Assembly: GCF_001647085.1 (NCBI RefSeq)
Contig: NZ_CP015520.1
Span: forward strand, 1,228,219 to 1,260,218
From: Thermococcus piezophilus
Lineage (GTDB): Archaea > Methanobacteriota_B > Thermococci > Thermococcales > Thermococcaceae
Direction of reading: 5' to 3'
Length of the DNA stretch: 32,000 bases
The notes beneath the pieces were generated by a model that ran no database searches, was not told the DNA's origin, and saw only the letters and a program-made list of their open reading frames with translations. The translations under genes and the position numbers were made by a program. Numbering within the stretch: position 1 is the stretch's first letter; each line of letters opens with the position of its first letter. This document shows, in pieces, positions 1,521 through 25,872 of this stretch.

Positions 1521-1584
1521 ATGCCCGATGATTGGAACAGAGAGTGAGCTGACGGGATGATGACCGACTTCTCGCTGAGGGCAT
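1521..1584 (+). ncRNA. C/D-box sRNA (2'-O-methylation guide)
   Basis: The layout is a 5' arm ATGCCC (1521-1526), then a C-like box ccGATGA (1525-1531). D' is either GTGA (1544-1547, 12-nt spacer) or CTGA (1549-1552). C' is ATGATGA (1557-1563), followed by an 11-nt guide CCGACTTCTCG and the D box CTGA (1575-1578). The 3' arm GGGCAT (1579-1584) is perfectly complementary to the 5' arm. The element is intergenic, has its own TATA upstream and a T-rich tract (ttttgttt) downstream. The C box deviates from RUGAUGA in its first two positions. Confidence 0.65.
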
Positions 1585-5101: not shown

Positions 5102-7057
5102 GTGGTGGCTTTGATAAGGAGAGAGACCTTCGTTGATGACATTCTACGCGATATAAAAGCAGTAATTTCCCAGATGGTTCCTAAGGAGGCAAGGATTACG
5201 GACGTTGAGTTCGAGGGACCGGAGTTGGTTATTTACGTCAAGAATCCCGAGGCCATAATGCAGGACGGTGAGCTGATAAAGAACCTCGCCAAGGTGCTCA
5301 AGAAGAGGATAAGTGTGAGGCCTGATCCAGACGTTCTCCTCCCACCTGAGCGCGCGGAGGAGATGATAAAAGCTCTCGTCCTGCCTGAGGCCGAGATAAC
5401 CAACATAAGCTTTGATCCATCCGTCGGTGAGGTTCTAATAGAGGCCAAAAAGCCGGGTCTCGTCATTGGAAAGAACGGCGAGACGCTTCGTTTAATCACT
5501 CAGAAGGTTCACTGGGCGCCGCGCGTTATACGGACACCGCCCATACAGTCCCAGACGATTTACTCAATCCGGCAGATCCTTCAGACTGAGAGCAAGGACA
5601 GGAGGAAGTTCCTCAGGCAGGTGGGCAGGAACATCTACCGCAAGCCCGAGCTCAAGAGTGAGTGGATTAGAATCACGGGCCTTGGAGGCTTTCGTGAGGT
5701 TGGCAGGAGTGCGCTGCTCGTTCAGACCAACGAGAGCTACGTGCTGGTCGATTTTGGTATCAATATAGCCGCCCTCCGTGACCCAAAGAAGGCCTTCCCA
5801 CACTTCGACGCGCCCGAGTTCCGCTACGTCCTGGATGCGGGCCTTCTTGATGCCATAATCATAACCCACGCCCATCTCGACCACAGCGGTTTGCTGCCCT
5901 ACCTCTTCAGGTTCAACCTTTTCGACGGGCCGATATACACGACCCCGCCGACGAGGGACCTGATGGTGCTCCTCCAGAAGGACTTCATCGAAATCCAGCA
6001 GATGAGCGGTATGGAGCCTCTCTACAGGCCGAAGGATATCAAAGAGGTCATCAAGCACACCATAACCCTTGACTACGGTGAGGTCCGTGACATTGCCCCG
6101 GACATGAGGCTTACGCTCCACAACGCCGGCCACATTCTTGGTTCGTCCATAGTTCACCTCCACATAGGCAACGGACTGCACAACATAGCCATAACAGGCG
6201 ACTTCAAGTTCATCCCCACGAGGCTCTTCGAGCCAGCCGTGAGCAGGTTCCCCCGCCTGGAGACCCTAGTGATGGAATCGACTTACGGTGGAAGCAACGA
6301 CTACCAGATGCCGCGTGAGGAAGCCGAGAAGCGCTTGATAGAAATCATACACCAGACCATCGGGAGGAAAGGCAAGGTCTTGATTCCGTCGATGGCCGTC
6401 GGTAGAGCCCAGGAGATAATGATGGTGCTCGAGGAGTATGCGCGCGTCGGCGGCATAGACGTGCCCATTTACCTCGATGGGATGATATGGGAGGCAACCG
6501 CAATACACACGGCCTATCCGGAGTACCTCAGCAAGCACCTCCGCGAGCAGATATTCCACGAGGGCTACAACCCGTTCCTCAACCCGATATTCAAGAGCGT
6601 CGCCAACACCAGGGAGAGGCAGGACATCATAGACAGCGACGAGCCGGCGATAATTATAGCGACATCGGGCATGCTCGTTGGTGGGCCGAGCGTTGAGTAC
6701 TTCAAGCAGCTCGCTCCCGATCCGAGGAACAGCATGATATTCGTCAGCTACCAGGCAGATGGAACGCTCGGAAGGCAGGTGCAGCGCGGCCTGCGTGAGA
6801 TCCCACTGGTCGGTGAGGATGGCAGGACAGAGGTCGTTCAGGTCAACATGGAGGTTTACACCATCGATGGCTTCTCCGGTCATGCAGACAGAAGGGAGCT
6901 CATGAGCTACATTGCCCGCCTCAGGCCAAGGCCAGAGAGGGTCATCACCGTCCACGGAGAGGCACACAAGTGTCTCGACCTTTCAACGAGCATCCACAAG
7001 AAGTTCGGTCTCAGCACAAGGGCTCCGAACAACCTCGACGCGATCAGGTTGAAGTGA
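5102..7057 (+). CDS. fttA: aCPSF1/FttA: KH-domain beta-CASP metallo-beta-lactamase ribonuclease (transcription termination factor)
   Basis: 651-aa ORF. It has N-terminal KH domains (VIGKNGETLRLI), the MBL motif IITHAHLDHSG and the beta-CASP/C-terminal motifs (GFSGHADRREL, VHGE). It is near-colinear with Pyrococcus aCPSF1 as I recall it. The start lies 1 nt after the psmB stop; GTG 5102, GTG 5105 and TTG 5111 are all possible. Confidence 0.95.
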   Translation: MVALIRRETFVDDILRDIKAVISQMVPKEARITDVEFEGPELVIYVKNPEAIMQDGELIKNLAKVLKKRISVRPDPDVLLPPERAEEMIKALVLPEAEITNISFDPSVGEVLIEAKKPGLVIGKNGETLRLITQKVHWAPRVIRTPPIQSQTIYSIRQILQTESKDRRKFLRQVGRNIYRKPELKSEWIRITGLGGFREVGRSALLVQTNESYVLVDFGINIAALRDPKKAFPHFDAPEFRYVLDAGLLDAIIITHAHLDHSGLLPYLFRFNLFDGPIYTTPPTRDLMVLLQKDFIEIQQMSGMEPLYRPKDIKEVIKHTITLDYGEVRDIAPDMRLTLHNAGHILGSSIVHLHIGNGLHNIAITGDFKFIPTRLFEPAVSRFPRLETLVMESTYGGSNDYQMPREEAEKRLIEIIHQTIGRKGKVLIPSMAVGRAQEIMMVLEEYARVGGIDVPIYLDGMIWEATAIHTAYPEYLSKHLREQIFHEGYNPFLNPIFKSVANTRERQDIIDSDEPAIIIATSGMLVGGPSVEYFKQLAPDPRNSMIFVSYQADGTLGRQVQRGLREIPLVGEDGRTEVVQVNMEVYTIDGFSGHADRRELMSYIARLRPRPERVITVHGEAHKCLDLSTSIHKKFGLSTRAPNNLDAIRLK

Positions 7058-8397
7058 TGGAAATGCGGGTGAAGTGTCCCTCCTGTAGGAGGGTCTATTC
7101 CTCCCTTATTCCCCCTAAGTGCTCCTGTGGGGCGCCCTTGACCATAACCTACGACTACGAGTCCATAGACGTTTCCAAGTGGAGGAACCGTGTTAAGGGT
7201 GTCTGGCGCTATAGGGAGCTTCTTCCGGACGTCAAGGAAGTTGTGAGCCTGAGTGAAGGTGGGACTCCCCTTTTGAAGGCTAAATTGGGGGAGGAAATGG
7301 GCCTAAACGTCTTCATCAAGGACGAGACGAGGAACCCTACCGGTTCCTTTAGGGACAGGCTCGTTAGTGTGGCTGTTTCATACGGTCTGTCCTACGCTGA
7401 GAACGGTTTTGTCGTTGCCAGCAACGGAAATGCTGCAGCATCGCTTGCCGCATACGCCGCACGTGCCGGCAAGGAGGCCTATACAGTTGTCCCAAATCTT
7501 ATAGAGAAGTGCAAGCTCACTCAGATAGCGGCCTTCGGGGCAAGGATAATACGATACGGCGAGAGCGTTGACGAGGGCATAAGTTACGCCGATGGACTGG
7601 CCGAGGGCAAGGGGCTCTACAACGTCACGCCCGAGAGGAATGTAGTGGGCCTTGAGGGGCAGAAGACAATAGCCTTTGAGCTGTGGGAGGAGCTTAGCCC
7701 TACGCATGTGATAGTTCCTACGGGGAGCGGCAGCAACCTCTACAGCATCTACAAGGGCTTTAAAGAGCTCCTCACCATCAGGGCCATCGATGAAATGCCC
7801 AGGATGATAGTGGTTCAGGCTGAAAGGTGCTCGCCCATAGCGAGTGAGGTGCTTGGCATCGAGCCGAAAGCAGAGCCGACCAAAGCACTTGGGCTGTACG
7901 TAAAGAACCCGCTCACGAAGGGGCTGGCGTTGGAGGCTATACGTGAGAGCGATGGGACAGCCGTTCTCGTGGGAGATGATGAGCTCGATCTCGGTGAGAG
8001 GTTGCTCGCGAAGGAGGGCATCTTTGCGGAGTATGCATCCGCTGTTATAGTCCCAGCTCTTCTCAAGCTTGCCGAGGAGGGCTACTTTAATAGAGACGAT
8101 AGGATAGCCCTCATAGTGACGAGTTCTGGCCTTAAGGGCCATTACTCCGAGAGCAGGGAGAAATTCGCGATTGGTGGCACAAAACTGGAAATCCTTAAGC
8201 TCCTTAGCGAAAGGAGTATGTACGGCTATGAGATTTGGGAGGCCTTGGAGAAGCCCCTTAAGTATCAAGCGGTCTATCAGCATCTCAGCGAGCTGGAAAG
8301 CCTCGGTCTGATAGAGGAATCCTATCGGAAGGGGAGGCGGGTCTACTACGGCATAACCGAGAAGGGCAGGAAGTTCCTCGAGACACTCTCCGCTTAA
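7057..8397 (+). CDS. Threonine-synthase-like fold-type-II PLP-domain protein with an N-terminal zinc ribbon and a C-terminal PadR-like winged helix. Arg replaces the PLP-binding Lys.
   Basis: ATG 7057 overlaps the fttA TGA (gTGATGg). The 6970 start in the ORF track is an extension inside fttA. It has a zinc ribbon (CPSCRR...CSCG) and TS-like motifs: NPTGSFRDR (canonical NPTGSFKDR), ASNGNAAASLAAYAARAG, EGQKTIAFE and PTGSGSN. The last ~70 aa, LEILKLLSERSMYGYEIWEALEK...YQHLSELESLGLIEESYRKGRRVYYGITEKGRKFLETL, match the PadR/wHTH pattern. Confidence 0.85.
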   Translation: MEMRVKCPSCRRVYSSLIPPKCSCGAPLTITYDYESIDVSKWRNRVKGVWRYRELLPDVKEVVSLSEGGTPLLKAKLGEEMGLNVFIKDETRNPTGSFRDRLVSVAVSYGLSYAENGFVVASNGNAAASLAAYAARAGKEAYTVVPNLIEKCKLTQIAAFGARIIRYGESVDEGISYADGLAEGKGLYNVTPERNVVGLEGQKTIAFELWEELSPTHVIVPTGSGSNLYSIYKGFKELLTIRAIDEMPRMIVVQAERCSPIASEVLGIEPKAEPTKALGLYVKNPLTKGLALEAIRESDGTAVLVGDDELDLGERLLAKEGIFAEYASAVIVPALLKLAEEGYFNRDDRIALIVTSSGLKGHYSESREKFAIGGTKLEILKLLSERSMYGYEIWEALEKPLKYQAVYQHLSELESLGLIEESYRKGRRVYYGITEKGRKFLETLSA

Positions 8398-9970: not shown

Positions 9971-10058
9971 GCGGGGGTTGCCGAGCCTGGTCAAAGGCGG
10001 TGGACTCAAGATCCACTCCCGCAGGGGTTCCGGGGTTCAAATCCCCGCCCCCGCACCA
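9971..10058 (+). tRNA. tRNA-Leu (anticodon CAA), class II with a long variable arm and a genomically encoded CCA
   Basis: Hand-folded. Acceptor stem GCGGGGG/CCCCCGC; D arm GCC-GAGCCTGGTCAAA-GGC; anticodon stem GTGGA/TCCAC with loop CTCAAGA (anticodon CAA). The variable arm is TCCCGCAGGGGTTC and the T arm is CGGGG-TTCAAAT-CCCCG. The discriminator is A, followed by CCA. No intron. Confidence 0.93.
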
Positions 10059-10300
10059 TTCCGTCATTAGTTATAACAAAAGACTGATAATGTATCAAAC
10101 TGTATAACGAATAGTCCAATTGTATCTAGAGCAATTCTTCCATTTTATAGTTCCATACAGGATATATCATTACAGAATTCGTTAGTATAAGTATCTTCAG
10201 TTGATTTCTCTCCATTACTAAGATTCACGATAGTTTTACTGTCTTCAAATATTAAAAGTCATAAAGTTTGTTAATAACCATAGAAGATAAAGCTTCAGAA

Positions 10301-11249
10301 CTACATCTCCATTCTTTTGAACAAGTTCAATCTTGTTAATTTGTTGGTATTACTACATAATTCTGCCTCAATTTTCATTTTAAGCACTCTCAGCATAGAA
10401 TATTGGGCTATCTCATAATCTTCACAATAAATTGCATAGTTTTTTAGTTCTATTTCAAGATCTGGTTCTTTTTTCTCTGTTTTTTGACTCAACTTAAAAA
10501 CCTTGACAAGTTTAAAGGTCAAATCCTTTGTACCCTCTTTATGATTATTGTTTTTGCTTCTAACTCTTTTGTAAACTCCACATTTCTCAAAGATTAACCT
10601 AGTCGAGTCTGCATTAACACTTTTTTGAGTTTATGAACAGTTGTCTTCTTTTTGTTCCATTTCATTAGCCAAGTATCCAAATTAAAACTCGGTAAGCGTT
10701 GATCCAGAATGTAGAGTTTCTCTCCAATTTTAACACCTACAGCAACATGACCAAAAATGTAATAAAGTAAATTTCAGGATAAATATTCGGCAGAGAGATG
10801 CAGTAAATCTTGCATGGTCTCTGCATACTGCTAGTTTGTACTTCAGGACTTTGTTGATGGTAGACTTGGTCGAATGATGTCTATAAAATATCCAAATAGT
10901 TTTGCTAATTTTGATAATTTCGATTTTTCATATCTTCACAAAGGTCGATAACTAATTATTAAGTATATAATCACAAAGAAAGGCAATGTGATAAACAATA
11001 AAGCTGGAATTAAACAACCACAAGAACAACGAATAATATAATCTAGATTCCTAAAACTCATGATACTATCCATCTTTCTGTCGGGTATCTTATGTTCTTG
11101 TCTTCCCATTCTAAGATATTAACTAATGTTTCTTTCTCAGAATCTCCTTTTAGTTGATTTACTAATCTCTGTATTTTTATGTTATCTATCTCTCCCAGTG
11201 TTGGACAAAATTCTCTTTTGATCTCTGTAATTTTTGAGAGTATTGACAT
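10301..11249 (-). pseudogene. Decayed gene, possibly a transglutaminase-like cysteine peptidase with TM segment(s)
   Basis: ATG 11249 follows a GTGATGGA RBS 30 nt after the upstream gene. Frame 1 gives MSILSK...TLVNILEWEDKNIRYPTERWIVS* (63 aa). Coding-like sequence then continues in other frames with extra stops: a TM-like GCLIPALLFITLPFFVIIYLIISY, then KYKLAVCRDHARFTASL (a C-R-D-x-A transglutaminase-core-like motif). Next come GHVAVGVKIGEKLYILDQRLP... and finally ORF 10301..10522 with its start-less upstream extension. There are at least 4 frame breaks plus at least one in-frame TGA. Confidence 0.35.
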
Positions 11250-11279
11250 AATCCATCACAAATCTTAATTGTCAGATGG

Positions 11280-12171
11280 TTAACTAAGCAATATTTCCAA
11301 AATCTGTGTTTTTATATCTCTATCCTTAGAGATATTGTCTAAAGCTTTTAATTCTACATTATATCCGTGGCTTTCGAATTTTGTTTTTAGGCTTTCAAGT
11401 ATACTCTCGTACCTCTTGAGTTGCTCCTTGAAGCGTTTATGCTTATCATTGAAGCGTTTATGCTTATCATTGAAGCGTTTATGCTTATCATTGAAGCGTT
11501 TATGCTTATCATTGAAGCGTTTATGCTTACCTGATTTTACTTCGCTTATGGAGATCATAAGGTGTTTTGGAGAGAATCCGATTACCAGAATATCTAATTC
11601 AGCTTGTACTTCTTTTTCTTTTATTAATTTGGTATCTAACGCTATCAAATACCATTCAAATTTCTTCTTTGTCTATATAATGTCGTAGTATATCAAGTAG
11701 ATGATACTGCTCTGCATATTCTCCTTTTTCTAGTTTGGTTTCAGGTAAACTTTCAAACTGTTTTAAATATAAGTTCAAATACTCTGAAGTAACAAAAGAT
11801 GGAATCGGTAACGTGAAAGAAAATAATTGAAATATCAATTTCAACATCTTTAATGGAAATTTAAGTAGAGACTCACTAGATAAAGACAGAGGCCGTAATT
11901 TTTTCGTTGCACAAGTACTTCGTTACCAAATATTTTTCTAAAATGCGACTAGCAAGCTTAGACGACTCAAATAGCCCTTTTTCAAGGAATTTTCTTTTTA
12001 AGCTCATTTGTGAAAGTGTTCCATAAAAGCCTTTCCTCTTCTTTTATTAAAAATAACAAGAGGCAAGTACAAAATTTTAGATATCCTCAGTAAATAATAT
12101 ATCTTATTAAGAGGATTATCTTCTTGAATTAAGATTGGATAGATGAATATCTGATAGTCTTTACTTGCCAT
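11280..12171 (-). pseudogene. NERD-like PD-(D/E)xK nuclease-domain gene (about 297 codons) broken by three frame changes and carrying an internal 7-aa tandem repeat
   Basis: Four colinear pieces lie on the minus strand. (1) ATG 12171 MASKDYQIFIYPILIQEDNPLNKIYYLLRISKILYLPLVIFN... (2) ...KKRKGFYGTLSQMSLKRKFLEKGLFESSKLASRILEKYLVTKYLCNEKITASVFI*. (3) ...SESLLKFPLKMLKLIF...LEKGEYAEQYHLLDILRHYIDKEEI* (ORF 11656..11847). (4) WYLIALDTKLIKEKEVQAELDILVIGFSPKHLMISISEVKSGKHKRF... (ORF 11280..11648). The pattern GE..(n)..ELDILVI..(n)..ISEVKSG matches the NERD/PD-(D/E)xK layout (E-I-D-hhhh ... hhh-E-V-K-x-x-G). The frame junctions coincide with A/T homopolymer-rich spots. Confidence 0.45.
11429..11529. repeat. 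Perfect 21-bp tandem repeat, 4.8 copies (unit tgaagcgtttatgcttatcat)
   Basis: Units start at 11429, 11450, 11471 and 11492 (all identical) and at 11513 (first 17 nt identical). The repeat is in frame on the minus strand and encodes (KHKRFND)x4 + KHKRFKE immediately after the EVKSG motif of the NERD-like ORF. Confidence 0.97.
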
Positions 12172-12242
12172 ATTGTACAATATCGTTCATGGAATAATAA
12201 ATTTAACGTAGCTCCGAAGGAAAAAGGCAGAAAGGAGAGATG

Positions 12243-14676: not shown

Positions 14677-17028
14677 TCACTCGAAGAGCCTCTTCCTGGC
14701 GGCCTCGAGCATGAGCTTCTGCTCTTCCCTGGCAACGGTCTTCCTGACGAGCTCGACGGCATCCGGGTTGGCGCTGACGCTGTCGATACCCATTCTGACG
14801 AGGAGCTTGACCATCTTCGGGTCGCTGCCGGCCTGACCGCAGATGCTGGTCTCGACGCCGTACTTCTTGCAGACCTTGATGACATTCTCGATGAGCTTGA
14901 GAACGGCCGGGTGCTTCTCGTCGTAGAGCTTGAAGACGCGCTCGTTGTCCCTATCGATGGCGAGGGTGTACTGGGTGAGGTCGTTGGTACCGAAGCTTAC
15001 GAAGTCAAGGCCCTCCTTGATGAGGTCCTCGATGATGAGGGCGCTGGCCGGGGTCTCGATCATGACGCCCCACTCGACGTCCTTGTGCGGAATGAGGCCA
15101 ACCTCCATGGCTATCTTCTTGGCCTTCCTGATCTGCTCCGGGTGGCTGACGAGCGGGAGCATGACACCGATGTTGTCGTAGCCCTCGTCAACGAGCCTCT
15201 TGATGGCCTTGAACTCGGCCTTGAGGAGCTCCGGCTGGTCGAGACCGCGTCTGATGCCTCTCCAGCCAAGCATCGGGTTCCTCTCTTCTGGCTCGTCCTC
15301 GCCACCTGGGAGCTCGCGGAACTCGTTGGTCGGGGCGTCAAGGGTCCTGTACCAGACCCTCCTCGGGTAGAAGGCCTCGACGACCTTCCTGATACCCTCG
15401 ACGAGCTTCTCGACGAGCTCCTCTTCCCTGCCCTCCTTGATGAACTTGATCGGGTGGGCACCGATGCCGAGGATCATGTGCTCGGCCCTAAGGAGGCCAA
15501 CTCCGTCCGCGCCGGTGGCGGCGGCCCTCTCTGCGACCTCAGGCATCGAGACGTTGACCTTGACCTCGGTGGCGGTGATGAGCGGAGCACCGGTGACAAC
15601 TACCTGACTGCCAGCGGCCTTCTCCTCTTCGTCCTTAACGAGGCTCTTGACTATGCCCTCGTAGACGACACCCCTGGTACCGTCGACGGTAACGAGCATG
15701 CCGTCCTTGAGGACCTTGGTAGCATCCTTGGTACCGACAACAGCTGGAATACCGAGCTCCCTGCTGACGATGGCGGCGTGACAGGTCCTACCGCCCTCGT
15801 CGGTGACGATAGCGCTGGCCCTCTTCATGGCCGGAACCATGTCCGGGTTGGTCATGGTGGTGACGAGGACATCGCCCTCCTTGACCTTGTCTACGTCACT
15901 CGCGTCGAAGATGACGACAACCTTACCGGCACCAATACCCGGTGAGGCTCCGAGACCCTTGAGGAGAACCTTCATCTCCTCAGTCATCTCGGCGTCTTCT
16001 GTCTTAACCTCTTCCTTAAGGGTCGTAATCGGCCTGGACTGGACAATGTAGAGCTTGCCGTCGTCCTTGTCGTAGGCCCACTCGATGTCCTGTGGCCAGC
16101 CGTAGTGCTCCTCGATCCTGGCACCGATCTTGGCGACCTCGAGTATCTGCTCGTCGGTGAGGACCTGCTTCTCGACGTACTCTGGGCCGAGGTACTCGGC
16201 AGTCTTAACGGTGACGGTTCCCTTACCGGTCTCGGGGTTCCTGACGATCATTATCTCCTTCTTGGCGATGTACTTCTCCTTGATCTTCCAGGTGCCTTTC
16301 TCGACTATGTACTCGTCCGGAGAAACGGCACCGCTGACGACGGCCTCACCGAGGCCCCAGGCAGCGTTGATCATTATCTCACTCCTATCGTTGGTGACCG
16401 GGTTGGCGGTGAACATAACACCGCTGGTCTCGCTGTTGACCATCTTCTGGACGACAGCGCTGAGGTAAACCTTACTGTGGTCGAAGCCCTGTTTGGCCCT
16501 GTAGAAGGTGGCCCTAGCTGTCCAGAGGCTGGCCCAGCAACGCTTGACCTTCTCGAGAACGTCGTCCTCGCCGTGGACGTCGAGGTAGGTCTCCTGCTGG
16601 CCGGCGAAGGAAGCCTCCGGGAGGTCCTCAGCGGTGGCAGAAGAGCGGACGGCAACATAAACGGCGTCCTTGTTGAAGCGCTGGCTGAGCTTCTTGTAAG
16701 CGTCGACAATTTCTTTGGCTATATCCTCTGGCATCTCCATGGAGATTATCTTCTCTCTTATCTTGGCGGTATTCTCCTGGAGCTGCTTGCTGTCATCAAC
16801 GTTAGTCTGGGCGATTATGTCCATAATCCACTCCTGAAGGGTTCTACCGTCCTCAACGCGGATGTTCTCAACGAAGTACTTGTAGGCCTTAGCAGTAACA
16901 CAAAATCCAGGTGGAACCGGAATACCAGCGTTGTTAAGTTCACCAAGGTTTGCACCCTTTCCACCAACAAGGGCAACATCCTTCTTTCCGAGCTCTTCAA
17001 ACCATTTTATAAACTTGTATTCGCTCAT
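14677..17028 (-). CDS. ppsA: Phosphoenolpyruvate synthase (pyruvate, water dikinase)
   Basis: This is ORF 14677..17043. ATG 17028 is preceded by GGAGGGGAT. The N-terminus is MSEYKFIKWFEELGKKDVALVGGKGANLGE. It has the phospho-His swivel motif GGRTCHAAIVSRELGIPAVVG, and the PEP-utilising C-terminal motifs SFGTNDLTQY and SICGQ. Confidence 0.96.
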   Translation of the reverse strand: MSEYKFIKWFEELGKKDVALVGGKGANLGELNNAGIPVPPGFCVTAKAYKYFVENIRVEDGRTLQEWIMDIIAQTNVDDSKQLQENTAKIREKIISMEMPEDIAKEIVDAYKKLSQRFNKDAVYVAVRSSATAEDLPEASFAGQQETYLDVHGEDDVLEKVKRCWASLWTARATFYRAKQGFDHSKVYLSAVVQKMVNSETSGVMFTANPVTNDRSEIMINAAWGLGEAVVSGAVSPDEYIVEKGTWKIKEKYIAKKEIMIVRNPETGKGTVTVKTAEYLGPEYVEKQVLTDEQILEVAKIGARIEEHYGWPQDIEWAYDKDDGKLYIVQSRPITTLKEEVKTEDAEMTEEMKVLLKGLGASPGIGAGKVVVIFDASDVDKVKEGDVLVTTMTNPDMVPAMKRASAIVTDEGGRTCHAAIVSRELGIPAVVGTKDATKVLKDGMLVTVDGTRGVVYEGIVKSLVKDEEEKAAGSQVVVTGAPLITATEVKVNVSMPEVAERAAATGADGVGLLRAEHMILGIGAHPIKFIKEGREEELVEKLVEGIRKVVEAFYPRRVWYRTLDAPTNEFRELPGGEDEPEERNPMLGWRGIRRGLDQPELLKAEFKAIKRLVDEGYDNIGVMLPLVSHPEQIRKAKKIAMEVGLIPHKDVEWGVMIETPASALIIEDLIKEGLDFVSFGTNDLTQYTLAIDRDNERVFKLYDEKHPAVLKLIENVIKVCKKYGVETSICGQAGSDPKMVKLLVRMGIDSVSANPDAVELVRKTVAREEQKLMLEAARKRLFE

Positions 17029-17177
17029 CCAAATCCCCTCCAAAGTGGTTTACCGCAATTGCTTATTGCGAGTGATATATAGAGAGTTTATATTTAAAAT
17101 TAACTATCCAAGGATGTTCGCTGGAGTACAGGAATGAAAAGAGGGGGGAATGTGTCCATTTAAGTTGTAAGGCTGAC

Positions 17178-18572
17178 CTAATTCTCCCTCCTGGCGTATA
17201 TTTTGAACTTTCCTTCGTAGAACTTTTTGATTAGTAAGTAGTTTCCGCTCTCTTCGATGTTTAGGTAAGTTTTAGGTTCTTTGTATATTATTAGGTCATA
17301 GTAACCTCTTGCTATCTTTTCTCTCGTTTTGTTGCTGTACAGGATCATTTCTACACTTGCATCAGGGTAGTAGAAACCTGCCATCGTGTACAGGTACGGT
17401 GAAACTAAAAGTTTCTCAGCTTGATAATGGTCTGCAGCGTAGTTTAAAATATCTGAATCGTACTTTCCAACGACGTTCCAGGTATCCTTTAAGTCGTACG
17501 CTCTCCTGCTTATTGGCATGAGAAACAGCAATGCAAGGGCTAATATCAGCACAGTCCGGTACCTACCTAAGGTCTTTGGTCTAAAGTGTTCGACTGCATC
17601 GATGAGTATCATTACACCCTCCTCGGTGAGTATTGCCATGGCCGGTGCAAGAAATGTTATGAAACGCGTCTCCTTATGGGTAACTGTGAGTATACCCATC
17701 AACCCCATGAAGAACCAGCTTATGATGAGCCATCCCTCGTCATTCTTCTTCAGTCTGACGAAGCCAAGTGTCGTGAGCGCCGGCAGGAGATAGCCGAGGT
17801 CTTTGAGGAGCATATTGATGTAGTCCAAAACAGAGATGGGTCTGTCCAGCGTAACGACGCGCGAGGCTACACTGAAGGGTCTGAAAATTCCCCCGTAGTA
17901 GATGTGTCCCATGTAAAGCCAGGGGGCGAGTGTGAACGCCAATAATATCAACCCAATCCAGTACTCCCTTTTCTTGACCCATTTCCAGTGGTCTGTGAGG
18001 TAGAGATACACTAAAAAGACCACCACGATGGAGAGGCCGGTGTATCGGGTGAGGATCGCTAGACCTGCAGCTATGAATGAAATGTATATTCTCAGTACGT
18101 TTCTTTTTTTTCGTCCGGTGTAGAGCAAGTAGACGGCAAGGGTATAAAAGAACGTGAATTCGCTGTGAACCAGTTCACGCGTAGCCATCGTGAATGCTAG
18201 GGGATTGCTGATGAAAAATAGACTTGCAATTATGCTCCTCCTCTCGTCCCCGAATATGTCTCTTGCGAGTAGGTAAACGAGAACTGCAGTGAACGAGAAG
18301 AAGAATGCCGAAACGAGCCTCGCAACGAGGAGATGGTACTCCTCGGGAACGAAGTGGTAGAAAAGCGAAAGGGTGTATGGATATAGTGGGGGTCTATACA
18401 TCATGTAAACTTCCTGATATGTGAAGCTAGTTATGTCATTGGCCAGATTTCGGGCTATATCTAGGTAGAGCGCCCCGTCGTAGGTGAGCGTGTTCCAGGG
18501 GGGCATCGTCGCGAGGCTGACTCCCAGAGCTAGGATAAATGGAATCAACGGCATCACGCGCTCTTTCTCCAT
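17178..18572 (-). CDS. GT-C fold glycosyltransferase of the ArnT/PMT_2 type (COG1807-like)
   Basis: 464-aa polytopic membrane protein with a GGAGGTGG RBS before ATG 18572. The first-loop signature TYDGALYLDIARNL...YRPPLYPY matches the D-x-x-Y...A...(K/R)PPL motif of the ArnT/PMT_2 families. A C-terminal domain of about 110 aa is soluble. It is the last gene of a four-gene operon and overlaps the upstream gene by 19 nt. Confidence 0.8.
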   Translation of the reverse strand: MEKERVMPLIPFILALGVSLATMPPWNTLTYDGALYLDIARNLANDITSFTYQEVYMMYRPPLYPYTLSLFYHFVPEEYHLLVARLVSAFFFSFTAVLVYLLARDIFGDERRSIIASLFFISNPLAFTMATRELVHSEFTFFYTLAVYLLYTGRKKRNVLRIYISFIAAGLAILTRYTGLSIVVVFLVYLYLTDHWKWVKKREYWIGLILLAFTLAPWLYMGHIYYGGIFRPFSVASRVVTLDRPISVLDYINMLLKDLGYLLPALTTLGFVRLKKNDEGWLIISWFFMGLMGILTVTHKETRFITFLAPAMAILTEEGVMILIDAVEHFRPKTLGRYRTVLILALALLFLMPISRRAYDLKDTWNVVGKYDSDILNYAADHYQAEKLLVSPYLYTMAGFYYPDASVEMILYSNKTREKIARGYYDLIIYKEPKTYLNIEESGNYLLIKKFYEGKFKIYARREN

Positions 18573-19675
18573 CTTTCCACCTCCACCGCAAGGTATGCAA
18601 AAAATGCCATTGCAGACAGGAAAAACGTATCAAGCCCTATGGGCACTGCAAGAGTCATGAAAGTTACCGCGAGAACCTCCGTTGTTCTCCTTCTCTCCGA
18701 ATCTGCAAGTGCTATACCGAGGAAGACTGCTTCTACCAGTCCAAGAATCCCGAAATCATAAGCGGGTTGACCGAAGAGGGTGTAGGTGTACCCCACATCC
18801 CTTCTGAAAAGCGCCCCGACGTAGCCCTTCGGGTTGACTGAGAAAATTATTGCTTGCTTTCCCCAGGGCATCCCGAGCTCAAAGAGCCTCTCGTAGACTG
18901 TGTAGGTAACGCCAGGACGATATAGAAGGGTCTCAGAGAAACCAAGCTTCCATTCGGGATACGTCTGGAGAGTAGTGTAATACCTGATAATGAAGACAGC
19001 AAAGACGCTGGAAAACACGACCGCTAGAATAGCGTAGCTCCTCCAGTTCCTTTTATCCCATCTGAGTTTTCCTGTCTGGACCAGCTTCAGAAAGTATGCC
19101 AGTGCAACCGCTATCCCCACTGTTCTGAAGGTTGAAACGATGGCTATCGCTTCACCAATGAGGAACACTTTAAAATCTGGCTTTATCGCTAGTATGGCCA
19201 CTGTAAAGTATCCTGCCGTCAGATAAAGAAGTCTGAGCGATGAATAACGTGTTTCAGGCTGGAGGAGAGGGATTACACCAAAGACAAGGGGTACAATGGC
19301 CAGTATTACCACCGCTGCTATCAGGATAATGCGGAGTTTCCATCTGGCATTTTCTGAGTTATCCTCGACCTTATGCCTTTCGAAGTAGATAATCACGTGA
19401 GTTGTGACGATTATGGCCAGTGCGACAAGTAACCCCCACCAGCCCAGACACGAGGGCATAAGGAGCAATACTGCTAGGTACATTGCCGATTTGTACCGGT
19501 GTTGGATTCTCTCGCTTGCGCTATATGCAAAGGCAAGAACTCCGAGAAATGCCAGGGCATAGAGCAGGGAATCCCACTCGAGCTTAGGGAGAAGTTTAGG
19601 ATAGGCAAGCTTTGCAACTAGGGCGAGGAGAATGTAAGCAACCGCGGAAATCCAGAATATCACGTTGAGCCTCAT
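18554..19675 (-). CDS. Polytopic membrane protein, Wzy-like (oligosaccharide repeat-unit polymerase-like), paralogue 1
   Basis: 373 aa with about 10 hydrophobic segments. The C-terminal motif is GYTYTLFGQPAYDFGILGLVEAVFLGIAL. Its start ATG overlaps the upstream stop (ATGA at 19672-19675). The functional call is by resemblance to Wzy/TIGR04370-type proteins from memory. Confidence 0.7.
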   Translation of the reverse strand: MRLNVIFWISAVAYILLALVAKLAYPKLLPKLEWDSLLYALAFLGVLAFAYSASERIQHRYKSAMYLAVLLLMPSCLGWWGLLVALAIIVTTHVIIYFERHKVEDNSENARWKLRIILIAAVVILAIVPLVFGVIPLLQPETRYSSLRLLYLTAGYFTVAILAIKPDFKVFLIGEAIAIVSTFRTVGIAVALAYFLKLVQTGKLRWDKRNWRSYAILAVVFSSVFAVFIIRYYTTLQTYPEWKLGFSETLLYRPGVTYTVYERLFELGMPWGKQAIIFSVNPKGYVGALFRRDVGYTYTLFGQPAYDFGILGLVEAVFLGIALADSERRRTTEVLAVTFMTLAVPIGLDTFFLSAMAFFAYLAVEVERWRKSA

Positions 19676-20676
19676 TCCGCAACCCCACTACCTTCTCTCT
19701 TTGCTGCCTTCCACCCATGTATTACTATGTATGCCCCCATCGCAAAAAGCAGATACACAGGGAGATCAAGTATCCCTGTCTCAACACCGACTATACCGTA
19801 GGCGAGGGTGGAATAGTAGAGGGCTTTCGTAACGGGATGTATGGCTTTCTGAATCAGCCCGTAGTAAAGGCCAAGCAGGAAACCCTCAAGAATTGCAAAT
19901 ACTCCGAAGTCCAAATACATCCCGCCCAAGAGGGTGGGGGTTATTGTAACGCCGTTGTGGACGTAGAGGAACTTGGCCACAAGACCCCTGGGGGAGTAGC
20001 CCCCAATAATGTATGAGGATATCCCAGTCCACTGAAGGTAGCCATGATAAAGACCTTTCCAGCCGGCGCGCCAGACTATTATGTCGAGGACAGAGGTGGA
20101 GCTCTGAACCCTTGTCAGAAGGCCTGCAGCAGTCTCTCCACGCAGGAACGTCATTCCAAGCCCAAGAACAAGGAGTCCTACAACAAGGACCGATATGTGG
20201 AGTACCTTGAGCCTTCCGCTCTCGCGCGTTTCTTCGTAGTACGCTGCACCCACTGCAAGCAGACTAACAAGAACTGGAGTCCTGTATGCGTAGAGGGTCA
20301 CTGCTATGGGGTATATCAAGGAATATTTCTTTCCCCGCAGGAACAGATAGACGCTCGAGGGAACGCCGAGGAAGTACGTCAGCGCGGTGAGCTGGGGGTT
20401 GAGGCTAGTTCTTATGGCTGGGTTAATCAGCGGGATGCTCCGAAAGTTGAGGATCTGAATGATTATTATTGCGATGGCAGCCCAGAAGGCCAAGACTATG
20501 TATTTCTCCTCGATGTCCAGCCCCACATCCTCCCACTCAACCTTCGTTCCGCGGTGGATTCCCCATAGGATCGCAATGGAAAACACCAGACCCACGGCTA
20601 CTGTCTTCGGCTGAGCTAAGCCGAGGGCTATAAAGGCCATGAAGAGTACTGGGATGAGCAGGGGTAACCCTTTCAT
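19672..20676 (-). CDS. Polytopic membrane protein, Wzy-like, paralogue 2
   Basis: 334 aa and multi-TM. The C-terminal motif GVTITPTLLGGMYLDFGVFAILEGFLLGLYYG aligns with the neighbouring paralogue. It has an ATGA overlap with the upstream gene at 20673-20676. Confidence 0.7.
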   Translation of the reverse strand: MKGLPLLIPVLFMAFIALGLAQPKTVAVGLVFSIAILWGIHRGTKVEWEDVGLDIEEKYIVLAFWAAIAIIIIQILNFRSIPLINPAIRTSLNPQLTALTYFLGVPSSVYLFLRGKKYSLIYPIAVTLYAYRTPVLVSLLAVGAAYYEETRESGRLKVLHISVLVVGLLVLGLGMTFLRGETAAGLLTRVQSSTSVLDIIVWRAGWKGLYHGYLQWTGISSYIIGGYSPRGLVAKFLYVHNGVTITPTLLGGMYLDFGVFAILEGFLLGLYYGLIQKAIHPVTKALYYSTLAYGIVGVETGILDLPVYLLFAMGAYIVIHGWKAAKREGSGVAE

Positions 20677-21338
20677 CCAGCCCTCACCTCAAGAAGCTCC
20701 AGCGGCAGGTTTCTCTCCTCCGAGTTTACGTAGAGGATGCCGTACATGTAAACCCTGCAGTCGCCAAGGTACGCCTTAAGGTATGATATGGGCACCCTGT
20801 TGGTAGTTATCATTGCACCGTTGTAGCTAATCTGGTTTATTGTTACTGAACCGTAAGTCATATAGTCTGCCTTGTACTTGAGCATGCCCAGCTCTATCGG
20901 ACTTACATTACCCTCTATATAGATTACTCCGGTGAACCTCTCGGAGTAAGCTTCGACAGTGAGGGAATTTATGATGTCATCCATTTCCCCTAACTGGGGT
21001 GGCAGTTTATAGACGTAGACCTTCCCACTGTAGTCTACCCTTATGAGCTTGGCTTTGAGGTCCTCCTTGGTGGCGCTCGGTCCCCCCACGCTGAGGACAG
21101 TTCCATTAGAAACTATGGTTATTGTCGACCCTTGAACGTTCAGTAGGGTCCCTTGTACGGTCTTTCCATTGACGGTTTCCACGGTTACCGTCACGTTGAA
21201 GCCCTTAGTGAGCAGTCCAAAGGCGTGGTTGGCGGCCTCGTATATTTCGCCGCCTTGGTAGTGCTGGATATAGTGGTTAATGGCAACGCCGAGAAGGGAT
21301 ATGACCACAACGATGGCTGAAACTTTTCTCCAGTCCAT
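20673..21338 (-). CDS. Hypothetical N-terminally membrane-anchored, beta-rich extracytoplasmic protein. First gene of the membrane operon.
   Basis: 221 aa. GGTGAGATGAT precedes ATG 21338. A single N-terminal TM (VSAIVVVISLLGVAI) is followed by Val/Thr/Gly/Asn-rich strands (FNVTVTVETVNGKTVQGTLLNVQGSTITIVSNGTVLSVGG). I recognise no family. Confidence 0.7.
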   Translation of the reverse strand: MDWRKVSAIVVVISLLGVAINHYIQHYQGGEIYEAANHAFGLLTKGFNVTVTVETVNGKTVQGTLLNVQGSTITIVSNGTVLSVGGPSATKEDLKAKLIRVDYSGKVYVYKLPPQLGEMDDIINSLTVEAYSERFTGVIYIEGNVSPIELGMLKYKADYMTYGSVTINQISYNGAMITTNRVPISYLKAYLGDCRVYMYGILYVNSEERNLPLELLEVRAG

Positions 21339-21622
21339 ATCATCTCACCACGCTGTCCCGCTAAATCTCGTGCAGTTTCGGTCAGTTTTATATGTTTTGG
21401 TGGACTTCTTGGCCCTCCCGGTCATAATATTATCAGAATTATCGGGCATAGTATCCTGTTGTAGGAGCGTCAACAGGTCTAAAAAGGTCTGCAGTGCCTA
21501 AAAGTAGCCATCATAGGTGTTATCTGATGATCTTGGGCTTTTAAGCTACTTCACAGAACGAAATCTTTATATCTGTGTGACCTTCACATTATAGATGAAC
21601 ATCAGGATTAGGAGGTGTTAGG

Positions 21623-24600
21623 ATGAACAAAAAGGCTCTGAGCCTTTTAGTCGCGGTAGTGATGTTACTCTCTGCGATCCCAGCGACAGTATCAGTGCTA
21701 GCAGTAACGACGACTTCAGTACATCAGTCTGAGAGCCCCCAGCAGATCGAGGTGGAGAAGCCCAGCAATTTCATACCTGGGGAAGTTCTTCAGAAGGAAA
21801 TCCAGAAGGTTCTGGAAAGCAGAGGTAAGACGGTGCGCCTCATAGTGGCACCGGATAGGGATCACAGGACTGAGGTTTACAACGCCCTCAAGAGCCTTGG
21901 TAAGATTGACCCCATCAGCAAACCTGAGCTGCAGTTCATAGTTGTTGAAATGCCAGTTTCCAACGTTGAAAAGCTCGCTGAAATACCCGGAATACTCCAC
22001 GTCTGGAAGGACGAGATGGTCAAGCTCGAGGAGCCCGTCGCACCTGAGGCAGGGGCAGGAGATGTTTCTCCAGATGCCAGCTTCCCCACTCACCCGGACA
22101 TGTTCATGAGCATCTTCACGATTCACGCTTACGACACATGGGTTAATTATGGTGTCCTCGGAGACAATGTCACCGTTGCCGTTCTTGACACTGGAATTGA
22201 CGTCGGCCACCCGTTCCTCCAGGTCACCCTCGATGGAAGGCCTAAGATTGTGAACATATACGACGCCAGTGACGAGGGGCTCGCGGAGATATACTACTCC
22301 ACCAACACCACGTCTAGTGGCTACATAACAGTCGATAAGAACGTCACCCTGTTCTGGGGTGTTTATGCGCAGTACTACGGCCACGATGCATATTACACGA
22401 ACTACACCATGGGAACCTATTACATCGGCAACATAACAGGTGACATGTACTATATAGGACTCCTCCCGGAGAGGTACTTTGACTTGAACTTTGATGGTGA
22501 TAAGAACGATGTTTACCCGATTCTCGTCGTTGACAACAATGGCACTTACACCGCATACATGGATATCAACATGAACAATAACTTTACTGATGATACTGGG
22601 GTTGGCCTCTATACTGAGACAGGGGAGTACTTCACCTTCAACACCAGCCTCGTTAACGTTGCGTTTGCCGAGTTCATGGCTCCAGACTACGCAATGTTCA
22701 TGTGGGACGCTCACGGTCACGGAACTCACGTCAGCGGTACCGTTGCCGGCGTTGGCCTTCCAGACGACCCGGTTTTCAGCGGTGTGTATGGAGTTGCCCC
22801 CAACGCCCAGCTCATGGAGGTCAAGGTTCTTCCGGGTGAGTTTGGATTTGGAAGGACTAGCTGGATAATCAACGGAATGATATACGCCACCCTCAACGGT
22901 GCGGACGTCATAAGCATGTCCCTAGGTGGTGGAGGCGAGATAAACGACGGTATAGAGAGCCCGGAGAACTTCTACGTTAACCTGCTAACCGACCGGTACG
23001 GTGTTACATTTGCCATAGCCGCAGGAAACGAGGGCCCGACCACCAACACCGTCCACTCACCTGGTGACAGCGACCTCGCCATAACCGTCGGCAACTACGT
23101 AGACAACGAGAGGGAGTCATTCTGGTACGGGGTTGATATGGGCATAATCTCTGGTCCAGCTATGAGCTCCAGCAGGGGACCGAGGGACGACGGTATGCTC
23201 GACCCCGACGTCATGGCTCCGGGTACCGACATATTCTCGAGCCTGCCGATGTGGTATACTATCGTTTACAACGACTCCAACAGATACTATGGAATATGGA
23301 GCGGTACCTCAATGGCCACTCCGCATGTCAGCGGTGCCGTTGCCCTAATGATTAGCTACGCCAAGCAGCACAACCTGACCTATGATCCCATAATGATAAA
23401 GCGCGCCCTCGAACTCAGCGCCAAGCCCGTCAATGGGACCCTTATAGATCAGGGCTTCGGCCTCATACAGGTGGATAAGGCCATCGAGGAGCTTGAGAAG
23501 CTCAGCCAGGAGCCGACCACCTACATCTTCGCCGGAACCACCTACACCGGCTTCAAGAACCCGATAGGCGTTCCGATGATCCCGATATCACAGGCCTATG
23601 TGGACTTCAACGGCTACTTCCAGAACGCCTTTGGCTTCCCGTACCTTTACAGGGGAGTCTACATAAGGAACGAGTATCCGGGAAGCGTTCCGATATACTT
23701 CTCACCGCTCGTCTATGAGCCAGGTTGGGGACTCCGGTACGTCTTCGAGAACAAGACCTACAGGATAAGCACCAACGTTAATTGGATCATTCCCAACACC
23801 ACAGAGGTCACGATCAACGGCGCCAGTGCTCAGAGCATAGACGACCTCATAGGACAGTTCTCAATTAACATCGACTACTCCAAGCTCCAGAAGAGTGGAA
23901 CATACGTTGGACTCGTTTACATCGACGACCCCGACACTAGCTACATCGACGGTTACATAGCTGTCACCGTCGACATTCCTGTGAACCCAAACGGTGAAAG
24001 CTATGCCAGGCTCTTCGACACCGAGAATCCTGGAGAAGCCAAGCACTACTTCGTTAAGGTTCCGCGCGCACCAAGGAGCTCCGCGTCACCCTCCGCATCG
24101 CAACCGACGCCGAGGGCAACCCGATTGGCAGAACGACCCTTTTCATCGCTAGGCCACTCGGTGAGGTCGTTGCTGCCTATGTCCCAGACTACTACTACGT
24201 CGGAGCCAACTCTGCCGGAAACGTCTACGAGTACACCTGGGTCATTCCCAACCCGATCGAGGGCACCTGGGAGATAACTGCCTACTCTAGTATATTCACC
24301 AAGTACCTCAGCGGCTACGACACTTCCCAGTACGAGATTGAGGTCAGCCTGACCTCAGTTTCCATCGAGCCTGAGCTCATACTCAAGGACGTTGCCCAGT
24401 CCTCAAACGTCACTGTCAAGGCCACCGTGAGCAACGACTACGATGACTTCAACGCCAGTGCCGTCGGCTATGGTGTTGGCAGGCTGGACGAGGCAGACGC
24501 CATGATCAGGGAAGTCAACCAGAGCGACTGGGATATTGTAGGTGCAGTGGAGGTCACCAGCTCTGACTACTACATCAAGTTCGGAATCACCCAGCCAGAA

Positions 24601-25872
24601 GACCCGAACGCTGACCTTGATCTGTACATATTCTACTTCCCGACTTACGAGGACCTAATGAACTTCACAAACTACACCCTCTACGATGAGCAGGTAGGCC
24701 CAACCTCCGACGAGGTATTTGAGAAGTTTATGCCAGAGCCGGGCTATTACTTCATCGCGGTTTACGGCTACGACACAGTTAACTACAATCCAATCCAGTA
24801 CGTCTTCTACTACCAGATACTCGGCGATAACGGCAACATCAGCGTTGATAGTACTCCGTTTACATTCACAGAAGGCACCAGCAAGACTATAAAAGCCACT
24901 GTAGAACTCAACAACTATGGAACTTACCTCGGAGTCATGGGTCTCGTCGATTCTGACACTGGTGAGGCTCTCACCTACGCGCCTATGATATTCCAAGTGG
25001 GCAGTCCAGAGATGTTTGTGGCAGTCTATTCAGAGGCCACGCTTGGCAAGCAGTCGGTGCTTAAGATTAAGCTCCTTGACCTTGCCACTATGCAGCTGAT
25101 AAACGCTCCAGCCAAAGTCATCGTGAACGGCAGGGAGTACTACACTGACAACGGTGAAGTGGATGTTTACTTCGTCCCACTTAAGTTTGAAGAGACCTTC
25201 AATATATACGTCATCAGTGACTACTACATGGACTACTCCGGAACATTTACGGTCAAAGTGAATGAACTCGCTGGCAATGAGGTTTACGATGCTACCCATA
25301 TAAAACCATACATCGCCACGGGACTTGGCAGTGTAACCAAGATCAATGTTTCGGACAGCGGCACGATGATAGGGATTACCGCTGAAGGCCCCAGCGGTAC
25401 GATTGGATATCTCCTAGTCACCCTTCCAGGTGACACCCAGTACGTCAAGGTCGCCGGCGATCATGTGCTCGAGTACTATATCCTTGAGGGCCAGAATGCA
25501 GTCTACACTATTGTCAAGGTCAGGTACGCATCCCCAGTTACAGTCACCATCGAGTACAAGACTGCCCGCTACATCGTCAGCACCTGGAACTACGTCTGGT
25601 ACATGCTCTACTGGAGGTACGACCAGAAGTTCGACCCACTCTACCAGAAGGCCGTCGAACTCGGTGTTGACAACGAGACCCTTCAAGAGGCCATGCGCTA
25701 CAAGGAGCTCGCCGACGAGTACTACGCAGAGGCAAAGAAGTACATGAACCCGTACAGAGAGAACCTCGCCGTTGCGGCACTTCCGTACGTCAGGAAGGCC
25801 TATCTCAACATCTTCAAGGCCTACACACTGCTCGAGGAGGCAGTTAACGAGATTGAAGGTTCCGAGGGCTGA
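21623..25872 (+). pseudogene. Pyrolysin-like subtilisin-family (S8) extracellular serine protease, about 1416 codons, interrupted by a 1-nt frameshift near 24062-24069
   Basis: AGGAGGTG RBS, ATG 21623 and signal peptide MNKKALSLLVAVVMLLSAIPATVSVLA. The catalytic residues are Asp in VAVLDTGID, His in HGHGTHVSGTVAG (with a long Asp-His insert, as in pyrolysin), Asn in AAGNEGP and Ser in SGTSMATPHVSG. After ...HYFVKVP, the ORF 21623..24277 frame becomes Ser/Pro/Arg-rich nonsense. The other frame is open from 24058 and reads ...TKELRVTLRIATDAEGNPIGRTTLFIARPLGEVV..., running into ORF 24427..25872 with no start codon before 24427. Confidence 0.88.

Follow-up and report, generated by a model that had tools for sequence, protein, structure and literature searches.

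The 32,000-nucleotide stretch of Thermococcus piezophilus DNA analysed here (contig NZ_CP015520.1; hereafter the window) carries four overlapping genes on its minus strand at positions 17178-21338, which we designate g1 to g4 in their 5' to 3' order. They are an orthologous instance of an archaeal module whose invariable core is a pair, a g1-like exoprotein gene and a gene of the Pfam family PF01901 ("putative O-antigen polymerase"), to which a second PF01901 paralogue and a GT-C glycosyltransferase are added. The most likely function of the module, to which we give a probability of roughly 45%, is the transfer or polymerisation of dolichol-linked glycans on the outer face of the membrane. The genes and the elements at their junctions are as follows, where ORF denotes an open reading frame, aa amino acids and SD Shine-Dalgarno.

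20673-21338, minus strand: g1, a 221-aa ORF encoding a predicted membrane-tethered exoprotein, arCOG03414
19672-20676, minus strand: g2, a 334-aa ORF, the first PF01901 paralogue (arCOG03206-type, Wzy homologue), with ~10 predicted transmembrane helices
18554-19675, minus strand: g3, a 373-aa ORF, the second PF01901 paralogue
17178-18572, minus strand: g4, a 464-aa ORF encoding a predicted GT-C glycosyltransferase of PMT_2/PMT type (ArnT-like, GT39-type)
20673-20676, minus strand: ATGA stop/start overlap of g1 and g2, the g1 stop TGA lying inside the g2 start, read from the sequence
20690-20681, minus strand: SD-like GAGGTGAGGG before the g2 start, read by eye
19672-19675, minus strand: ATGA stop/start overlap of g2 and g3, read from the sequence
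18554-18572, minus strand: 19-nt overlap of g3 and g4 (g3 stop TGA at 18556-18554, g4 ATG at 18572-18570)
18584-18578, minus strand: SD-like GGAGGTG for g4, 5 nt upstream of the ATG at 18572
21344-21398, minus strand: putative operon promoter and leader, read from the sequence
21398-21385, minus strand: putative BRE (transcription factor B recognition element)/TATA-like AAAACATATAAAAC, ~52 nt upstream of the g1 ATG
21349-21344, minus strand: putative SD-like GGTGAG upstream of g1

An initial annotation of this DNA had placed four minus-strand ORFs here, joined by two ATGA overlaps and one 19-nt overlap, and all of these were confirmed in the sequence; the promoter and SD elements were called by eye. 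For g4 an alternative start exists at Met7 (ATG at 18554-18552), which would reduce the overlap with g3 to the 1 nt of TGATG. We favour the 19-nt overlap because GGAGGTG, a strong SD-like element, precedes the ATG at 18572 and because in the closest relative (locus L001) the g4 ATG is found solely at +19, as in the window.

We compared 11 Thermococcales loci, comprising the window, eight loci from metagenome-assembled genomes (MAGs) obtained by a genome-contig scan, and those of Pyrococcus abyssi and Palaeococcus pacificus; each of the three Thermococcales genera is represented. All 11 have the genes in the order g1-g2-g3-g4. The ATGA overlap of g1 and g2 is present in 11/11 loci and g2 and g3 overlap by 4-41 nt in nine of the ten loci besides the window. 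Taken together, the g2/g3 and g3/g4 junctions overlap by 1-41 nt nearly everywhere, the exceptions being one junction that was left unassigned and one 38-nt gap at L008, where the sole g4 start candidate lies 38 nt past the g3 stop. The flanks vary, with ppsA on either side of the block and an S8 protease gene present or absent. The four-gene arrangement is more than chance. Since both order and overlaps are conserved in the Thermococcales, co-transcription and translational coupling are well supported and the single transcript proposed earlier is very plausible; the fixed stoichiometry proposed with it cannot be concluded from gene overlaps. T. kodakarensis, P. furiosus and P. horikoshii are missing from the match lists of our protein searches and may lack the block.

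Beyond the Thermococcales, cluster and contig look-ups gave seven further loci (L011-L017), which are arranged as follows.

L011, Methanococcus maripaludis: a TrmB-like protein of 251 aa, PF01901 proteins of 357 aa and 391 aa, then DUF373
L012, Undinarchaeum: the same trio as in L011, a TrmB-like protein and two PF01901 proteins, without a GT-C gene
L013, L015, L016 and L017, four archaeal contigs: the exoprotein and a single PF01901 protein
L014, an archaeal MAG: the exoprotein, PF01901 and PMT_2, with AglB/STT3 two genes further

A protein search with a diverse alignment returned almost only Thermococcales, and the nearest PF01901 relatives outside that order are from Methanococcus maripaludis, Methanothermococcus and Undinarchaeota. 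Across the whole sample a g1-like gene immediately precedes a PF01901 gene, in 11/11 loci from Thermococcales and in 7/7 from other archaea; the two genes often overlap by 4 nt. Two PF01901 paralogues are found in three lineages and a PMT_2 gene next to the core is absent from six of the seven loci outside the Thermococcales. Conservation across all seven of these loci extends to a g1-like gene with one PF01901 gene, and not to the whole block of four. The invariable core is the g1-like exoprotein together with PF01901, and the second paralogue and the GT-C enzyme are add-ons. At L011 a DUF373 (PF04123) membrane protein (L011:10265-11374) occupies the position of the Thermococcales PMT_2 GT-C enzyme. 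We also observed SRP19 a few genes downstream of the exoprotein-PF01901 pair in M. maripaludis (L011:12350-12619) and in an unrelated MAG (L015:7764-8051), a shared synteny that may be ancestral or a coincidence.

The association of these families has been published. Makarova, Galperin and Koonin (Biochimie 2015, PMC5898192) recognised homology to Wzy in arCOG03206 and its paralogues (COG1822, pfam01901; MMP1111, MJ0420), with an HHpred probability of 98.1% to PF14296. They noted that a predicted operon "typically" holds two of these paralogues beside arCOG03414; this "uncharacterized secreted protein" has a match to the sugar-binding domain of TrmB (HHpred 99.5%). The same genes "often co-localize" with the two different PMT-family arCOGs arCOG00563 and arCOG00566, and a role in a lipopolysaccharide-like or glycosylation pathway was predicted (PMC5898192). 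The novelty implied by the initial annotation, according to which the block could be an uncharacterised assembly system, is superseded by this work, in which both the gene association and its interpretation appear. The window locus agrees with the published arCOG03206/03207, arCOG03414 and PMT module in its families, layout and Wzy and TrmB similarities and does not differ from it in gene content; the paper gives a general prediction only. Literature searches by locus tag, arCOG identifier, family name and organism found no experimental follow-up among the papers covered; the module has been described computationally. What the present analysis adds is the obligate pairing of g1 with PF01901, the degenerate second paralogue, the G-x5-E motif of g1 and the conserved overlaps.

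The assignment of g2 and g3 comes from profile comparisons. Both pass the PF01901 cutoff of 24.2 bits, g2 with 182.9 bits (E 1.3e-53) and g3 with 63 bits (E 3.9e-17). Their matches to TIGR04370 are significant and lie under its curated cutoff of 40 (g2, 34.5 bits, E 1.1e-8; g3, 22.9 bits, E 3.8e-5), and neither protein itself matches the Wzy family PF14296. Such scores point to homology to Wzy families, not membership. A profile search of 1.84 billion proteins indicates that the PF01901 family is small, with 92 clusters at 50% identity (E <= 1e-3). All 53 diverse representatives match PF01901; four of the 53 also match PF14296 (best 3.2e-8) and one gives a weak match to Wzy_C. Between themselves g2 and g3 are distant paralogues (BLASTP, 25% identity over 254 aa, E 4e-4). 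Across the same Thermococcales loci g3 orthologues share 30-60% identity as against 48-75% for g2, g3 being the faster-evolving of the two.

The two paralogues also differ in the residues that they keep. In g2 numbering, the near-invariant positions of the family are P82, R89, R132-T133, R189, T193, R230, T246, T248, G251, D256, G258 and E299-T-G-x-x-D304, and g2 carries this signature in full. All first paralogues and single-copy genes keep it nearly whole, with isolated changes only (R89K, T248M/S, T300S and D304E). Second paralogues fail to keep it: T. piezophilus g3 has R230K, E299P, T300I and D304T, and the second paralogue of M. maripaludis has R132K, R230E, E299N and D304V. In its own numbering g3 retains P136, R143, R184, R253, T297, T299, D307 and G309, has K283 in place of R230 and lacks the E-T-G-x-x-D motif, where P345, I346 and T350 are found instead. 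An AlphaFold2 model of g2 (predicted local distance difference test (pLDDT) 79; predicted template modelling score 0.81) contains ~10 helices. When these helices are combined with the distribution of Lys and Arg, the segments RGKKY, YYEETRESGRLK, QKAIHPVTK and the C-terminal KAAKRE would fall on one side of the membrane; g2 would then be N-in/C-in and every signature residue would lie on an external loop, the large one of residues 178-258 among them.

The product of g1 matches a hypothetical protein of T. piezophilus with 100% identity; its relatives form 58 clusters, all from Thermococcales. Its AlphaFold2 model (pLDDT 90.2) consists of an N-terminal signal-anchor helix (residues 3-23) with R4 and K5 at its start, a helix of residues 30-44, a small β-barrel spanning residues ~50-118, and an α/β domain (residues 119-220). 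A Foldseek search with this model gave no global match and a local match to TrmB (2f5t_X, probability 1.00, root mean square deviation 3.0 over 85 columns), together with a second TrmB structure (3qph_A, probability 0.99); being local, the match has weak E-values (0.1-0.4). The barrel resembles the second sugar-binding subdomain of TrmB, a helix with a flattened β-barrel. With 18.7 bits, and over profile positions 182-231 of 233 only, g1 falls short of the 22.2 cutoff of the Pfam TrmB effector-binding domain (PF11495), and the g1-like products of the genes that directly precede PF01901 in other archaea exceed it with 26-35 bits. An hhalign comparison of the g1 family with these proteins gave 98.1% (E 6.9e-14). 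The 221-aa protein had first been recorded as belonging to no recognisable family; these comparisons place it as the Thermococcales branch of arCOG03414, homologous to the proteins that exceed the PF11495 cutoff. Searches of PDB sequences with g1 and with wider g1 alignments (hidden Markov model (HMM) and phmmer) found nothing relevant and no direct TrmB alignment.

The strongest motif of the g1 family is VGGPSATKED, which holds G85, G86 and E92. G86 and E92 are invariant in eight aligned family members from inside and outside the Thermococcales, and G86-x5-E92 falls in the segment matched by the Pfam TrmB model. In TrmB, six of the seven sugar contacts come from the second effector subdomain, in which a strand and a helix accompany a flattened barrel of seven strands, and among TrmB paralogues only Gly320 and Glu326 are conserved (PMC4158304). 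The G-x5-E spacing of g1 equals that of TrmB G320/E326. Using an offset estimated from the 2F5T construct and the Pfam model, which each have 233 positions, G86 and E92 would correspond to G320 and E326 within ~±3 residues.

Compared with the TrmB regulators (PF01978 and PF11495; 2F5T, 3QPH), g1 shares the fold of the second effector subdomain and the G-x5-E spacing. It differs in lacking the first effector subdomain and the DNA-binding domain (no PF01978 match) and in having an N-terminal membrane anchor and a predicted extracellular location. Because it has no DNA-binding domain, is membrane-anchored and is predicted to be extracellular, g1 is not a regulator. We also considered g1 as a Wzz-type chain-length regulator. 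Wzz co-polymerases have two transmembrane helices flanking a periplasmic α/β base with a long helical hairpin; g1 has one transmembrane helix and a β-barrel plus α/β fold. With fold and topology thus different and with no Wzz Pfam match, this identity was rejected, and a role analogous to that of Wzz is possible. At some homologues outside the Thermococcales (L011:7241-7996, L014:6124-6990) the N-termini MKKIG/ILEF and KIAG/INFFD faintly resemble class III (type IV pilin-like) signals, and a profile search gave a weak match to a geopilin N-terminal domain (E 0.32). The pilin-like N-terminus is inconsistent across the family and a type IV pilin-like signal was discarded.

The fourth gene had been read as a GT-C glycosyltransferase and this call is borne out. 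The g4 protein scores 64 bits against PMT_2 (PF13231; E 2.5e-17, cutoff 26.1) and 42.1 bits against PMT (PF02366; E 1e-10, cutoff 22.7), and its match to the ArnT equivalog NF009784 is weak (28.9 bits against a cutoff of 567), so that it is not an ArnT member. Eight g4 orthologues and the PMT_2 protein of L014 invariantly keep Y31-D32-x-x-L35-Y36 and P61-P62-x-Y64-P65; R41 is invariant as well. The motifs, seen in g4 as YDGALY (with D32) and PP(L)YPY, lie in the first loop after the first transmembrane helix, and hydropathy indicates a C-terminal tail of ~109 aa. D32 is presumably the counterpart of the loop-1 acidic residue used by GT-C enzymes such as ArnT and PMT and would, as in those enzymes, be catalytic. 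In passing both profiles and keeping the loop-1 Asp, g4 resembles ArnT, PMT and Haloferax volcanii AglS, which are GT-C enzymes that use dolichol-phosphate (Dol-P)- or undecaprenyl-phosphate-linked sugars at the outer or lumenal face. AglS is a characterised archaeal Dol-P-mannose transferase acting outside the cell. Judging by the family, the donor of g4 would be a polyprenyl-phosphate-linked monosaccharide.

Building on this gene structure, homology, pairing and residue conservation, we propose for the module a topology, a donor, an acceptor, a polymerisation or transfer step and a set of protein-protein contacts. The module would take dolichol-phosphate-linked sugars as substrates and work at the outer face of the cytoplasmic membrane. 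As a catalytic subunit of the Wzy superfamily, g2 would join or transfer lipid-linked glycan units, and g1, tethered by its one helix, would hold the glycan, either the acceptor or the growing chain, for g2 by means of its TrmB-like barrel. As the obligatory partner of g2, g1 stands in the position of an accessory subunit, like Wzz or a substrate-presenting subunit, although unrelated to Wzz. The partly degenerate g3 is probably a specialised or non-catalytic partner of g2, or may carry out a second transfer step such as ligation. Acting as AglS, ArnT and PMT enzymes do, g4 would extend the same product by a monosaccharide, with a Dol-P-sugar as donor. The product may be a conserved surface glycoconjugate, whether a glycan chain, a lipoglycan or a protein-linked glycan.

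The proposed module resembles the bacterial Wzx/Wzy pathway in having a polytopic Wzy-profile homologue with conserved basic and acidic residues on (here predicted) external loops, and a single-pass or bitopic accessory protein encoded beside the polymerase homologue. It differs in that Wzx, Wzz, an initiating transferase and a glycosyltransferase cluster are not part of it, in that the accessory protein is TrmB-barrel-like, in that the family, itself small, is conserved and not hypervariable, and in that the lipid carrier would be dolichol, not undecaprenol. The initial annotation had already noted that Wzx, Wzz and an initiating transferase are not adjacent to the block, which the gene content of the 32-kb window confirmed. 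The MATE gene of the window was considered as the missing Wzx flippase and set aside; it matches PF01554 (MatE) only, and its adjacency beyond ppsA is not kept in P. abyssi.

Several observations weigh against an outer-face glycan transfer or polymerisation machine. A small, conserved family embedded among housekeeping genes is unlike the hypervariable, cluster-embedded Wzy genes of bacteria, which weakens the term "repeat-unit polymerase". No flippase, initiating transferase, cytoplasmic glycosyltransferase or sugar-nucleotide genes were found nearby in the 32-kb window, and the same context (Wzx, initiating transferase, glycosyltransferases, Wzz) is missing at the other loci examined. The GT-C gene is missing at most loci outside the Thermococcales, and the TIGR04370 matches of g2 and g3 remain below the curated cutoff. 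A Foldseek search of the PDB with the g2 model gave no Wzy, WaaL or RodA match (best E 0.13, TM-score below 0.2), so that none of the solved Wzy/WaaL structures matched it, and profile searches of PDB sequences with g1, g2 and g4 (HMM, phmmer) found nothing. The correspondence of G86/E92 to G320/E326 is drawn from spacing and an estimated offset only. To our knowledge no polymeric glycan has been described from Thermococcales or Methanococcales. Of the earlier Wzy-like call for g2 and g3, the part that stands is the relationship seen with PF01901 and, below cutoff, TIGR04370; structural agreement was not obtained by Foldseek. The Wzy homology of the two proteins appears in profiles, not in fold.

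The same features bear on what the substrate might be. Because the family is conserved, small and located among housekeeping genes, without a flippase or glycosyltransferase cluster, the substrate is argued to be fixed and conserved, and for this reason transfer en bloc becomes a serious rival, even if we judge it rather unlikely. Here the PF01901 proteins would be ligases of WaaL/PglL type, also members of the Wzy superfamily, which move a preassembled dolichol-linked glycan to protein Ser/Thr, in archaeal O-glycosylation, or to a membrane lipid, while g4, as a PMT-like O-mannosyltransferase, would share that target and g1 would serve in glycan recognition. A conserved family in housekeeping contexts suits one fixed substrate better than variable repeat units. 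The founding members of the PMT family are protein O-mannosyltransferases, one PF01901 member weakly matches Wzy_C, the ligase family, and no homologue of a chain-length regulator is present. What speaks for polymerisation instead is that PF14296 and TIGR04370, both polymerase families, are closer in profile than Wzy_C is. Moreover, co-conservation is not seen for any acceptor protein, since the S8 protease next to the block occurs at some loci only, and we know of no description of O-glycans in these lineages.

It is improbable, in our estimate, that the core g1+g2+g3 and g4 are functionally independent, with g4 a lineage-specific neighbour that is merely co-transcribed and belongs to a different pathway, such as one that decorates N-glycans in the manner of AglS. 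Such independence would fit the lack of PMT_2 beside the core at six of the seven loci outside the Thermococcales, the presence of DUF373 in its place in M. maripaludis, and the 38 nt that separate g3 from g4 at L008. Yet g4 follows g3, usually with an overlap, in every Thermococcales locus that extends far enough, in three genera; PF01901 is followed by PMT_2 in the independent archaeal MAG (L014); and co-localisation with two PMT-family arCOGs is frequent (PMC5898192). Very improbable is a system for sugar uptake or sensing, in which g1 would be a tethered sugar-binding protein and g2 and g3 a heterodimeric permease or signal transducer rather than enzymes. One binding protein with two paralogous polytopic proteins recalls binding-protein-dependent transporters, in TrmB the domain serves to sense sugars, and the top Foldseek matches of g2 are transporters, though weak and none significant. 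These transporter matches have TM-scores below 0.2, no ATPase or other energising component is present, PF01901 is significantly profile-similar to Wzy families and associated with GT-C transferases, and conserved Arg, Asp and Glu on predicted external loops are typical of Wzy/WaaL-type enzymes.

The genes around the block in the window encode glutamate dehydrogenase, the proteasome, FttA, RpiA, uracil phosphoribosyltransferase, MATE, PpsA, the S8 protease and NMD3, and the neighbours at all loci are housekeeping genes (ribosomal proteins, SRP19, tRNA synthetases, transketolase). In most Thermococcales loci (L001, L003, L007, L009 and L010) ppsA, which in the window spans 14677-17043, lies directly downstream of g4 on the same strand; at L004 it is on the other side of the block and on the opposite strand. 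As judged by eye, ppsA seems to have an AT-rich promoter region of its own. The divergent subtilisin-like Peptidase_S8 gene at 21623-25872 (plus strand) appears frameshifted, with a break near 24061-24070: residues 1-832 of the 1429-aa Palaeococcus orthologue align in frame 2 (21623-24061) and residues 836-1429 in frame 1 (24070-25863), and the tail of the 884-aa protease ORF looks out of frame. The gene could be a pseudogene, or the frameshift could come from a sequencing error or mark a recoding site.

Elsewhere in the window, in the region 9971-12200, a tRNA-Leu(CAA) gene (9971-10058) is followed by a ~2-kb island with a GC fraction of 0.31-0.33, as against ~0.5 elsewhere, which contains short ORFs only, none with a Pfam match, and looks like the remnant of an element integrated beside the tRNA. 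Positions 11428-11529 hold a perfect 21-bp tandem repeat of 4.9 copies (TTGAAGCGTTTATGCTTATCA) inside an ORF at 11280-11648 (minus strand). The repeat encodes KHKRFND five times, and its 122-aa host ORF has no family match. A C/D-box small RNA, sR58 (Rfam RF01308, 71.4 bits), is found at 1524-1580 (plus strand) upstream of the glutamate dehydrogenase gene. Finally, a 475-aa ORF at 6970-8397 (plus strand) joins a pyridoxal phosphate-dependent enzyme domain (PALP) to a C-terminal PadR/ArsR-type winged helix and is an enzyme-regulator fusion.

The role of archaeal Wzy homologues has not been established, and the enzymes for archaeal O-glycosylation and lipoglycan assembly are unknown. A more far-reaching possibility, which we put forward tentatively and regard as doubtful, is that the g1-like protein and PF01901 form an archaea-specific two-component glycan transferase that makes a yet-undiscovered conserved envelope glycoconjugate in Thermococcales, Methanococcales, Undinarchaeota and others, for example as the missing O-glycosylation or lipoglycan machinery. 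If so, the TrmB sensor domain and the extracellular subunit would share one ancestral sugar-binding module. Experiments could well begin with this module, since it is conserved, compact and present in two genetically tractable species, M. maripaludis (MMP1110-1112) and P. yayanosii. The value of the analysis lies in the sharper hypotheses that it offers, namely an obligate exoprotein-enzyme pair, a degenerate second paralogue, and G86 and E92 as candidate sugar-contact residues.

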